Shown here piece by piece: positions 33,888 through 39,394 of a DNA stretch of 64,000 nt. This stretch comes from Octopus vulgaris (Eukaryota). The stretch spans positions 29,140,001 to 29,204,000 of the forward strand of contig OX597834.1 in the NCBI GenBank assembly GCA_951406725.2, written 5' to 3'. Position 1 is the stretch's first letter. Each line of letters opens with the position of its first letter. The notes below the pieces were generated by a model that worked only from the letters and a program-made list of their open reading frames with translations, was not told where the DNA came from and did not search any database. Both the position numbers and the translations under genes were made by a program.

Positions 33888-34608
33888 CATATTGTATGTA
33901 TATATACATAAATAGATAGATAGATATACATACATGCATACATATATATACATACACACACACACTTATATATATATGTATATATGTGCATATATATATA
34001 TATATATATATAGTCTTACGACTATTTTTAGTAGTTGATCTTTATCTCAATAATCTTTTCTAACTGATTAACTAATCCAGCCCACACTAAGTGTTTCTAT
34101 AATCTGCTTGGAAAAATAAGAGGGAGATAGAGGGAGAGGGAATGAAAGAGAGGCAGTGACATAGAGACACACAGAAAGAGAGGGGGAGGAAGAGAAAAAA
34201 AGTAAAATAGAAGGAGTGAGAGAGTGATAGATACATTTCAAACTATATTTTGGTCACACTGCTATCATGTATCAACCGTTTGGTCAGTCACAGAAGAAAT
34301 ACTCAGAGTTGCAATTCAAGAGCCTTCAGTTTTTAATATATGAGTATATTAATTCAATGTGTGTGGGTGTGCATGCGTGAGTGTGTGCATGCGTAAGTGT
34401 GTGTGTGTACATGTGTGTGTGTGCGCATGTAAGCATGACTGTGCGGTAAGAAGCTTGTTTCCCAACCACAAGGTTCTGAGCTCAGTTCCAATGTGTGGCA
34501 CCTTGGACAAGTTCTCCCACTATAACCCTGGGCTGACCAAAGCCTTGTGAGTGGATTTGGGAGACAGAAACTGAAAGAAGTCCATCATATATATATATAT
34601 ATATATAT

Positions 34609-34800
34609 AGTCGCCATGATAGATCGTTAGCCACTACACACATTTTTTTTCTCTCCTTATTTTTTCTGTGTCCCTTTCTGTAGAAGAGCGTAGGCTCGAA
34701 ACATAAAAGACTTTTTCTAATCCTGAGTGTTATACTAATAGATCTGTTTGTTTTTGTACACCACCTGTCTTTGTCTTTTGTTTTTTTCGTAATCTCTCCC
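34609..34800 (+). mobile_element. Family H element inserted in the internal TA tract of a SINE A copy
   Basis: SINE A left half at about 34435-34588 and right-half remnant at about 34845-34905 flank it; contains CTTT-CTGTAGAA-GAGC-GTAG-GCTC-GAAA-CATA-AAAG. Confidence 0.75.
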
Positions 34801-35059
34801 TATATATATATATACACACACACATACAAATGCATGTGTATGTGTGCATGTTTGTCTCCCCACTACCACCACCACCACTTGACAACCAGTGCTGGTGGTT
34901 TTATATCCTGGTTATAAATATAAACAACTTAACATTAAGCTGAAATGTTACTCAATATATTTTAGGTGAGTATATTTATTACATTTTATTTAATAACCCA
35001 AAACTTTGAAATTACTGTCAACCTTTATGCATACATCCATACATGTATATAATATATCA

Positions 35060-35399
35060 AATGGAAATTGCAGTTGTGATACTCGTGCTGGTGGCACATA
35101 AAAAGCTCCATCTGAATGTGGCCGATGACAGCACCACCTTGACTGGCTTCCGTGCCAGTGGCAAATAAAAAGCACCAACCAATCGTGGCCGTTGCCAGCC
35201 ACCCCTGGCCCCTGTGCCTGTGGCACATAAAAAGGACCCACTACACTCACAGAGTGGTTGGCATTAGGAAGGACATCCACCTGCAGAAACACTGCCAGAT
35301 CAGACTGGAGCCTGGTGCAACTGCCAGGCTTCCCAGACCCTGGTCGAACCATCCAACCCATGCTAGCATGGAAAAACGGACGTTAAACGATGATAATGA

Positions 35400-35403
<4 letters not shown>
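35060..35403 (+). mobile_element. Family E
   Basis: Tandem units followed by the conserved tail. Confidence 0.8.
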
Positions 35404-35442
<39 letters not shown>

Positions 35443-35855
35443 GATATGTATGTATGTATATATGAATACAGATATAAACACTCACACACACACCCATACA
35501 TATATAAATATATGAGTGCATTTATACGCACATGTTTATACACACATAAGTGTATATATACATGTGTATACAGTGTAACTTAAAATTTAAATAGTATCAC
35601 AAATGAACAGCAATTAGATCTCTATGTTTTGTCATGCGTCTCAAAGGATTCCATGTGAAGGACTCATAGAACAGTCCATGTCTTTCTTTGTTAGGGTCCC
35701 TGTTGCCAATATCCCAGAGTACATATACAAATAAAACAAAAGAGGAGGGTTTGTTTATAAATAATCATTTAGTTACATCATCTTACATACATTTCCTTAA
35801 CAAAGAAAGGTTCTTTGCCTCATAGCGTAAATTATATAATCAAATTTCTTTGTGA

Positions 35856-35982
35856 AATCCTCAGAGACATGTAACATTCATTCATATTTATTACTGGATT
35901 AGTGACCGTTTTGCCATCATTGGTAAGCAGTTGTTACTGATTCAGTAATCTTAGCAATGGAGGTTACATGTCTTTGATGATT
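35856..35982 (+). ncRNA. Long G-U-rich hairpin; candidate miRNA/hpRNA precursor or ADAR substrate
   Basis: 17-bp helix 35890-35906/35933-35949 plus basal 14-bp helix CAGAGACATGTAAC/GTTACATGTCTTTG and an apical helix; non-WC pairs inside helices are G-U on +. Confidence 0.5.
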
Positions 35983-36375
35983 AGATAATGTAATTTGATT
36001 ACAAAATTTAATCATGCAGCTAATGATCATTCTGTGTTCATGTATCATCCATATGATGGTGTAATTAAGCATTTTAAAAACAATTCCTCCTGTTGTAATT
36101 TGCTTTCTACACACATGCATTCATATACGACACACACATACACACACACGATGGATTTCTTTCAGTTTCCCTCTACCAAACTCATTCACAAGACTTTGGT
36201 CAGCTCAAGACTAGAGTAGAGGATATTTGCTCAAGTGGTATAACTGACCCTAAAATTATGTAGGGAAAACAAACTTCTTAATCACACAACCATACCTGCT
36301 ACCTATATTTACATTTATCTATGTGGATCTCTCTCTCTCTGTCTCTCTCCCTGTATATATATATACCCTGAAATT

Positions 36376-36951
36376 ACTAAAAGCTGTCGCTGATTAGCTC
36401 CATGAGGCCATCGCCTTAAGATAGCTATTTGACACACAAACTGTGTCCATTATAACCTTCGAACAAGGAAGGTCAGCCGCTTCACACTGCCAGTCAGACA
36501 GCTACAGACGCGTTTCAGGGTATTTGTCCTTTGTCAATGTAGCGTAGTCGACCCAGCAGGTGTCGCCACTGATCGTCTCTGTTCGAAGGTTTTATTTACC
36601 TAGTTTCAGTGGAATACATCCACTTGTTTTCAATAATAGAAATATTAAAAATATTGACAAAGGACAAATACCCTGAAACGCATCTGTAGCTGTCTGACTA
36701 TCAGTGTGAAGCGGCTGACCTCCCTTGTTCGAAGGTTATAATGGACACAGTTTGTGTGTCAAATAGCTATCTTAAGGCGATGGCCTCATGGAGCTAACCA
36801 GCGACAGCTTTTAGTCTTATATCTATAAGATTGCCATATTAATATGGTGATAACAATTAATTTCCAGTAACGCTGCCGTAATCTCTTTTAGAGAGACTTA
36901 GTAATTTTAATATTTCTATTATTGAAAACAAGTGGATGTATTCCACTGAAA
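36376..36951. mobile_element. Penelope-like inverted pseudo-LTR structure with two hammerhead-like motifs
   Basis: 163-bp inverted repeat 36376-36538/36653-36815 and 47-bp inverted repeat 36604-36650/36905-36951; TA-flanked; hammerhead-like motifs at 36501-36543(-) and 36653-36690(+). Confidence 0.7.
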
Positions 36952-37004
36952 TATATATATATATATATATATAGTGACTTACTAATGTGTATACAGAAAA
37001 TTAA

Positions 37005-37435
37005 TGTTGAGTATGATCGTTACCAGCGTTGCCTTACTGGCACTTGTGCCTGTGCTAGCAGGGTGCCAAGAGCACCATCTGAGCATGATCGTTGCCAGAG
37101 CAGCCAACTGGCTTCCGTACCTGTGGCACGTAAAAGGGCACCATTCGAGCGTGACTGTTACCAACGTCGCTTCACTGGCACATGTAAAAAGATTCAAGCG
37201 AGGTCATTACCAGTACTGCCTGACTGGCCCCCATGCCAGTGGCACGTAAAAAGCACCCACTACACTCTCGGAGTGGTTGGCGCTAGGAAGGGCATCCAGC
37301 TGTAGAAACTCTGCCAGATCGAGATTGGAGCCTGGTGCAGCCATCTGGTTCGCCAGCCCTCAGTCAAAATCGTCCAACCCATGCTGGCAAGGAAAGCGGA
37401 TGTTAAACGATAATGATGATGATGATGATGATGAC
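37005..37435 (+). mobile_element. Family E, long copy with four internal units
   Basis: Repeated GAGCATGATCGTT(A/G)CCAG..CTGGC units followed by the tail. Confidence 0.8.
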
Positions 37436-37757
37436 AGTAGCTTGCAATGTGCTACCAAAAAGGAAAACTATAATTGTCACTAAATATGACCAGGGTGTTA
37501 AGAACACCTACATTGCTAGAAATAAGAGCTAAAATGCTCAAATGTTGTTGTCAAAGCACACACACTCTTACCCTTTCCTTTATTATGAAATATCTCTTTG
37601 TCATGATTGTCATTAATGTTGTTGTTGTTGTTGTATATATTTGTTGTACGGATTTTTGTTTGCTTTTCTTGATTTTCTTTTCAAATTATTGTCATCATTG
37701 ATGTCATTGGTGCTTTTGTTGATTTAAATATATATATTTTGTGATATTATGTATATA

Positions 37758-37827
<70 letters not shown>

Positions 37828-37923
37828 AATATATATGTGTGTATATGTGTATACATGTATATCTATATATATATATATTTATACACACACATATATACAC
37901 AGATATATATGTATATGTGTGTG

Positions 37924-37982
<59 letters not shown>

Positions 37983-38464
37983 ACACACACACGGATATAT
38001 GATAGTCAACAAGGAAAATTTAGAAAATAAATAATCTTATTTTTAAGATGAGATTTTTTGGGAAAAAAACCCCCAATAATGCAAAATGTAAAAAAATATA
38101 TAACAAGACAACAACAAGAACAAATAATAGAAACAAGCAAAATTGAAATAAAAAACATATAAGTTAAAACAAAAGGAAAATTTTATCATCTCTCACCATC
38201 AGAGGGGAAGTAGAGGGGAGAAAATTATACGACACATGGAAATTTCATCATCATCATCATCATCATCTCATCATCATCATTGTTGTTGCTATTGTTCTTG
38301 TAATTCTCTATTATTGTTAATTTGTGGAAAGATTTAACTAGAGCATATACAGATGTATACATGTGTGTATGTATGAGTGTGTGTATGTATTTGTATATCT
38401 ATATATCTATCTATCTATCTCTCTATTTATCTATCTATATATATATATACATCTACATATATAT

Positions 38465-38513
<49 letters not shown>

Positions 38514-38520
38514 TATATAT

Positions 38521-38558
<38 letters not shown>

Positions 38559-38622
38559 CATGCATATATACACACACTCACACATATATACATATATATA
38601 AATGTGCATATATTTGTTTGTA

Positions 38623-38664
<42 letters not shown>

Positions 38665-38754
38665 GACATACATATATATACTTGTAGATATACCTATATA
38701 TGTATGAATTTATAGACATATGTGTGTCTGCATATGTGGGTGTATGTGCATGTG

Positions 38755-38836
<82 letters not shown>

Positions 38837-39394
38837 TACATACATATATGTAACTATATATATATGTATGCATCTGTGAGTGTGTGAGTGAATGTATGCA
38901 AGTGAATGAGTCTGTGTGTTTGCGTGTGTGTATATTTATATAAGCTTCTTATATTTGAGACAGAAAATTAGCAAATTGCTTTTAATATAAACAACAAACA
39001 ATACAAAATATAGAAAGAAGGAAAGAAAGAGAAAAGAAAAAAAACGCAGGAAAGGAGGAACAAATAGGAAGGGGGAATGGTGTGAGGGGGGAAGCAGAGA
39101 GAGATAGAGAAGTGTGTATGTGTGTGTGATGGAAAAAGAGGTAGATAGGTAGAGAGTGTAGAGGCCAAACAATGATTATATTCTACAGCAAAACACTAGT
39201 GGTGGTGCAACCACTTCTACAATGCAGTGTAATAACACTGTATTCAATGCTTACACTACCACTATGTCTACCACCTATACTACATACACCAACATTATGG
39301 ATGTTATTAGGACTACTTTTATGATGATGTGTTGTAACACTACCACTAACACCACCGCTACAACAACTAATACAATAACTATTACAATTAGTAG

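Follow-up and report, generated by a model that had tools for sequence, protein, structure and literature searches.

How did a pair of opposed hammerhead motifs come to lie in a double-inverted structure at 36376-36951 of the window (the 64-kb stretch of octopus DNA analysed here), and does their shared core, UUGACAA, mark them as decayed? An earlier note had read the locus as a Penelope-like pseudo-LTR with a pair of minimal hammerheads, whose core was either a family-wide variant or the trace of an inactivated master copy. Our analysis instead makes it probable that two incomplete copies of a non-coding, 364-nt hammerhead unit entered the locus together, head to head, as a single insertion. 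The unit would be a non-LTR retrozyme for which a Penelope-like element is the likely mobiliser in trans. In the literature drawn on here, both the origin of head-to-head Penelope insertions and the enzyme that moves animal retrozymes are open questions. Among the thousands of copies, the one in the window is probably dead, but both questions become approachable in vitro through its family: the template is short and non-coding, its two start sites are mapped, and an intact candidate enzyme is encoded in the same genome.

Structure of the insertion

The insertion lies between a (TA)6 tract on its left (36354-36365) and an (AT)11 tract on its right (36951-36972), and this (TA)n sequence on both sides makes any target-site duplication unreadable. 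As described earlier, two inverted repeats are interleaved between the tracts: a long one of 163 bp (36376-36538 and 36653-36815, 5 mismatches), with a chance expectation within the window of E 7e-75, and a short one of 50 bp (36604-36653 and 36902-36951, 1 mismatch), whose previously reported 47-bp core likewise has 1 mismatch. This interleaving results from the 5'-to-5' joining of two circularly permuted partial copies, or rotations, of a single unit. With unit position 1 set at the first base after the predicted cut, the left arm (36376-36653, minus strand) maps to 278 nt of the 364-nt unit (unit 218>364>131) and the right arm (36653-36951, plus strand) to 299 nt (unit 333>364>267), and their 5' ends meet at 36653 with a 1-nt overlap. 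The two arms diverge from the family majority by 1.4% and 2.7%, respectively. They differ from each other at 6 of 213 common positions, including the polymorphic unit position 16, and share a private change in stem II. No further copies of the unit were found within the 64-kb window.

Both family 3'-end sites, S1 (unit 168-179; 36852-36863, plus strand) and S2 (unit 235-239, ...CTATTAT; 36919-36923, plus strand), are passed through and left unused in the present copy. Its actual ends, at unit 131 and 267, are atypical, and it is the sole inverted insertion of 18 with neither end at S1 or S2. The left junction (36363-36380) is complex: an 11-nt sense hammerhead snippet (unit 348-358) at 36363-36373 overlaps a 10-nt antisense match to unit 216-225 at 36371-36380, the latter read by eye, and both snippets may represent short template jumps. 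The same short inverted stem II/GAAA snippet occurs at the junctions of two independent insertions, at window 36363-36373 and at L017:1450-1466. On either side of the insertion lies an unrelated short interspersed repeat (window 37250-37420 and 36100-36300), with 10 and 6 other matches in the window, respectively.

Hammerheads of the window copy

The minus strand at 36501-36543 carries a complete type I hammerhead, which reads letter for letter as the earlier note gave it. Stem I (36543-36538 with 36506-36501) is followed by the core UUGACAA (36537-36531), stem II (36530-36517) and GAAACGCGUC (36516-36507), and the predicted cut falls at a GUC site between 36507 and 36506. The 3-bp stem II reported for this motif is present but private to the window copy, where a G>A change at 36527 has shortened the 4-bp stem of the family. 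The plus-strand motif (36653-36690) does break off within stem I: it starts at 36653 and lacks the 5' strand of that stem except its last base. It carries the same private stem II change, and GAAACGCATC (G>A in stem III) disrupts its stem III palindrome. Searched as an exact 26-mer, the stem II change has 2 matches genome-wide, namely the two arms of the window copy.

Being on opposite strands, the two motifs are unable to form a tandem dimer in one transcript and pair together instead; folding predicts a transcript with a 163-bp hairpin that engulfs the ribozyme. With each arm shorter than one unit, opposed hammerheads and this predicted hairpin, monomer release would not be possible from the window copy. 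We consider the insertion to be probably a dead copy, given the lack of a full unit, the private stem II change in both arms and the hairpin predicted to mask the ribozyme. A comparison with hammerhead models, proposed in the earlier note, was negative in that none of 123 Rfam matches at E up to 10 across 34000-39000 belonged to a hammerhead family. Matches to MIR399 and MIR447 over the locus were rejected, as their scores are below gathering and reflect the long hairpin.

A dispersed family of 364-nt units

A DNA search of the 2.8-Gb genome returned 51 matches of 97-100% identity from the best 40 scored of 2777 candidates, and in several loci the match repeats with a period of 364 nt as tandem copies. 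The unit has a GC content of 41% and a longest stop-free frame of 56 codons. The exact 26-mer of the family core has 142 matches genome-wide (control, 0), and two looser U3-A8 descriptors gave 754 (control, 48) and 1617 matches (control, 33). Loci fetched from these looser searches belong mostly to older and sister subfamilies that are 79-92% alike, with a few from another family, and sister arrays extend to 5.5 units (L200) and about 7.6 units (L225). The unit family is thus young and dispersed, with sister subfamilies in thousands, although the sampled copies are mostly best matches or exact-core matches and so biased towards young, intact ones. A literature search by title (hammerhead, retrozyme, Penelope, octopus), with subscription papers and supplements outside its scope, found no description of the 364-nt family. 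In four presumed RNA runs, available as contigs only, the family is present, mostly as a sister variant; 2 contigs span the unit boundary, where a circle and a tandem are indistinguishable and RNA ends do not show.

The family hammerhead is of type I with a palindromic stem III, in agreement with the earlier reading. With 6 bp in helix I and 4 bp in helix II (AGGG/CCCU, loop CAAAUA), it lacks the dimensions of the minimal motif that had been claimed. Canonical metazoan hammerheads have a 6-bp helix I, a 4-bp helix II and a short palindromic helix III; the minimal form, found in pseudo-LTRs, has a helix I of 4-5 bp, a helix II of 7-8 bp and an absent or minimal helix III (PMC4209133). The circular fold of the unit is predicted at -117.9 kcal/mol (z -6.9), a value as low as which none of 100 shuffles reached. 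For covariation, 19 units were hand-picked out of 45 candidates to span the subfamilies. In this alignment 97% of cells are paired, and 9 of 33 pairs show changes in both partners, with 5 of these 9 pairs in the hammerhead; the control keeps no phylogeny, so these counts reflect few events. All three stems covary among copies, an outcome by which the earlier note had proposed to judge its reading: both-side changes affect 2 of 6 pairs in stem I, 2 of 4 in stem II and the centre of stem III (GC/AU/UA), where the palindrome is CGCG, CAUG or CUAG across subfamilies. Three hairpins outside the ribozyme are likewise maintained by both-side changes.

A LINE (endonuclease, RT and zf-RVT, with a zinc-knuckle ORF1) lies within unit 305-317 at L225:1090-6448 and L226:1453-6825, with a 13-bp duplication, and the tail of the same LINE adjoins unit position 305 in L058 (L058:1471) and at L226:834. 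Its target in the unit is fixed, about 29 nt upstream of the hammerhead core.

A compensatory U3-A8 core

To what extent the core of the window copy departs from its relatives can be read from 30 loci of the DNA search. U3 is present in 39 of the 40 arms covering position 3 and A8 in 40 of the 41 covering position 8; neither C3 nor G8 occurs among the arms of these loci. The core change is therefore older than the inversion and family-wide, as the earlier note had considered, and the family consensus reads TTGACAA rather than CTGACGA. More broadly, 80 of 91 distinct family motifs are U3-A8, 10 of the loci behind the remainder having been fetched deliberately as single-site variants. Depending on the subfamily, position 7 is occupied by C, U or A, a variation that positions 3 and 8 do not display. 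All core positions of a type I hammerhead are present in the family: a Watson-Crick combination at 3-8, U4 G5 A6, A9, G12 A13 A14, A15.1-U16.1 and H17.

U3-A8 is invariant in the 19-unit alignment, and the pairing of positions 3 and 8 is therefore taken from the literature. C3 and G8 pair, and U3-A8 is a natural covariation in ribozymes reported to be active (PMC3088659), with about 1,300 such motifs in Schistosoma Penelope elements (PMC4209133). UUGACAA is thus no mark of inactivation, since U3-A8 replaces the C3-G8 pair as a published compensatory variant. An inactivated master copy is unlikely on the same grounds (the 3-8 pair is kept, position 7 is free and the stems covary), and CpG decay or inactivation as the origin of UUGACAA is ruled out by its family-wide occurrence. 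UUGACAA is the family-wide core; this variant is already published, and neither the class nor the core is new.

A C3-G8 subfamily of the unit was considered and rejected: of 10 matches with G8, half fall in an unrelated family and the other 5 are older-subfamily variants that read U3-G8. A search with L075 as query likewise established no C3-G8 family of the unit. L075:1479-1553 holds a single C3-G8 hammerhead with a CUAG palindrome that resembles the oldest subfamily and is possibly a distant relative of ancestral type. Loci L061-L090 hold other families of hammerheads, in which the core is the standard C3-G8 one and the loop is NAAAUA (455 matches; control, 3). Their stem III is CCCGGG or CTGCAG, one occurs as a trimer with a period of 249 on C3, and by blastn they are unrelated to the 364-nt unit. 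A further U3-A8 family (L116, L126) has a UAGG/CCUU stem II; close to its apparent 3' end lies a GCCA...TGGC hairpin that resembles the one preceding S1 in the 364-nt unit.

Ends and junctions of the copies

We surveyed 49 distinct insertions, comprising 67 arms, from loci L001-L060. Eighteen are head-to-head, 31 have their sequence on one strand and none is tail-to-tail; together with the (TA)n targets, this supports the Penelope-type head-to-head footprint recognised earlier. The 3' ends are concentrated at two sites, with 59 of 67 arms ending at S1 (27) or S2 (32), as do 23 of 27 arms in the 20 insertions found by pattern alone, and sister loci have the same end sites. Fifty of the 67 arms then continue into a TA tract (at least 7 of 10 dinucleotides TA or AT). 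The choice of end is not plain microhomology, since the most TA-like stretch of the unit (130-146) receives only 3 ends. The 5' ends are scattered over the unit; near the predicted cut site there are no 3' ends and one 5' end (unit 359).

In the inverted insertions, S1 on one arm is paired with S2 on the other in 14 of 18 cases, or 14 of 15 when both ends sit at a site (p 4e-4). At a 55:45 polymorphism, 10 of 11 inverted insertions have the same base in both arms, the window copy being the exception. Junction overlaps measure 0-7 nt in 16 of the 18 head-to-head insertions, and in 17 of them a distance of 47-170 nt on the unit separates the 5' ends of the paired arms. More than one unit is covered by 28 of the 67 arms, and 5 of the 67 span two cut sites. 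Four arms (L004, L023, L025, L027) are very nearly one unit long (361-368 nt), as if copying had stopped at its own start.

A candidate Penelope helper

A GIY-YIG search of the genome recovered many intact 781-codon frames with RT and GIY-YIG domains, the RT scoring just under the Pfam cut-off. These frames carry a CxxxxCxxC linker, which marks the Neptune or Nematis clade (PMC8557442). The corresponding Penelope element has a 504-bp pseudo-LTR unlike the 364-nt unit, and blastn (word size 7) detected no homology of the unit to the element or its pseudo-LTR. Its copies run into (TA)n at one of two points, ...TACAAAT or, about 40 nt beyond, ...C(C/T)TATTAT (24 and 7 of 34 motifs scored, the other 3 being internal or partial), and both inverted copies seen have one end site per arm. 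Its hammerhead combines the core UUGAUAA with GAAACAUG, a feature found in the older retrozyme subfamily too, and in a search for this hammerhead 99 of the 100 matches listed, out of 1223, were U3-A8. Upstream of the RT frame, and overlapping it in a different phase, one copy (L189:1768-5468) has a 479-codon frame without a Pfam match.

The same end pattern and a U3-A8 core in an intact Penelope element make this family the likely mobiliser of the unit. The partnership is accordingly drawn from footprint and core; against the identity of this particular helper, the end motif that it has in common with the unit is a short, AT-rich one, and the genome contains other GIY-YIG families.

Proposed mechanism and alternative explanations

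We propose that tandem copies would be transcribed and that the U3-A8 hammerhead would cut after GUC, probably as a dimer through its palindromic stem III, yielding monomers that may be circularised. A Penelope protein could nick both strands of a (TA)n tract and use two internal sites on a single RNA to begin cDNA synthesis; both cDNAs would halt at random points and then join by microhomology. Where an arm exceeds one unit, a multimeric linear template would explain it no less well than a circle. We suggest tentatively, at slightly less than even odds, that a Penelope RT dimer on one retrozyme RNA circle primes both (TA)n strands from two fixed sites 60 nt apart, as recorded by the window locus, and that the helper's ribozyme is the ancestor or the partner of that of the retrozyme. 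The window locus would record such one-template priming directly, since the private base in its two arms occurs at no other place in the genome. Descent or pairing is suggested by the rare U3-A8 core common to both ribozymes, to which the older subfamily adds the CAUG palindrome. Another Penelope protein has been described in vitro as starting at two internal sites and extending both strands, with a dimer predicted for it (PMC11167929).

The 364 nt could alternatively be a solo or truncated pseudo-LTR, the 3' end of a longer autonomous Penelope element, as a head-to-head layout, an optional tail and a (TA)n target are all characteristic of Penelope elements (PMC8557442, PMC3846280) and U3-A8 is known from Schistosoma Penelope elements (PMC4209133). 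We regard this as highly improbable, and with it the pseudo-LTR assignment of the earlier note: the unit is a stand-alone tandem repeat without an ORF, its arms circle round and repeat it (up to 5.5 units in the sister array L200) instead of entering unique sequence, and the Penelope family examined has a different pseudo-LTR to which the unit shows no blastn homology. The linked GIY-YIG/RT frames that the note had proposed to look for are absent beside the unit, none of the 49 insertions running on into one (continuation of arms checked; loci up to L098). It also appears quite improbable that the inversion arose by fold-back self-priming on one cDNA or an antisense template, as proposed in PMC3846280, or by later recombination, in place of two primed cDNAs. 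Copying from arm to arm or gene conversion would equally be expected to leave the private base in both window arms, and one older-subfamily locus (L120) has a near-palindromic junction; but the spacing of the 5' ends in 17 of 18 insertions leaves no palindrome, each window arm contains sequence absent from the other, and fold-back would not be expected to alternate S1 with S2.

Rather unlikely, too, is the possibility that the hammerhead is a non-catalytic relic or a protein-binding structure and that the RNA moves as an uncut multimer. The insertion ends disregard the cut site, hammerhead mutants left insertion unaffected in vitro (PMC11167929), and 8 of 9 Xenopus retrozyme dimers were uncleaved (bioRxiv 10.64898/2026.07.22.740005). 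Against a non-catalytic role, subfamilies that are 79-99% alike retain every catalytic position despite changes at position 7 and in the stems, and activity is reported for U3-A8 ribozymes (PMC3088659). A retrozyme with a putatively active hammerhead is our preferred reading of the family.

Comparison with known systems

Judged by its sequence features, the unit family is a non-LTR retrozyme with a Penelope footprint, and not a Penelope element or a minimal-hammerhead pseudo-LTR. It shares with the metazoan non-LTR retrozymes described by Cervera and de la Pena (2020, PMC7229834) a non-coding monomer of 150-450 bp (350-390 bp in mussel repeats), a GC content under 50%, one canonical type I hammerhead per unit and a highly self-paired predicted circle. 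Tandem copies with two hammerheads on one strand, also typical of those retrozymes, occur in the family and not in the window copy. Penelope elements were proposed as retrozyme mobilisers in the same work. The octopus family differs from the retrozymes described there in its U3-A8 core, its fixed internal 3' ends at (TA)n and its mostly dispersed, sub-dimeric insertions, 18 of 49 of them head-to-head. Expression and circles have been demonstrated for those retrozymes and are predicted for the octopus family.

The Penelope footprint of the family comprises the head-to-head inverted copy, the optional tail and the microsatellite target; the RT and GIY-YIG ORF between pseudo-LTRs that distinguishes autonomous Penelope elements is absent from the unit and the insertions examined. 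The Cercyon Penelope hammerheads of Schistosoma mansoni have the same compensatory U3-A8 pair, and motif pairs 100-700 bp apart on opposite strands are described in that source (PMC4209133). Cercyon carries the variant in minimal pseudo-LTR motifs, whereas the octopus variant sits in a canonical-sized motif of a non-autonomous unit. Neptune/Nematis-type elements (PMC8557442, PMC3846280) and the PAc in vitro system (PMC11167929) resemble the octopus copies in their inverted 5'-truncated copy, one-arm optional tail, two internal start sites and AT-rich or (TA)n target. Unlike them, the octopus unit lacks an ORF and is a short repeating template, with sites about 60 nt apart as opposed to 30-40. 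Vertebrate non-LTR retrozymes likewise co-occur with Penelope elements, and a non-autonomous partnership has been proposed for them (bioRxiv 10.64898/2026.07.22.740005). In Xenopus, 24 of 57 retrozyme families match transposable elements, mostly pseudo-LTRs, whereas the octopus unit has no such homology but matches its candidate helper in ends and core.
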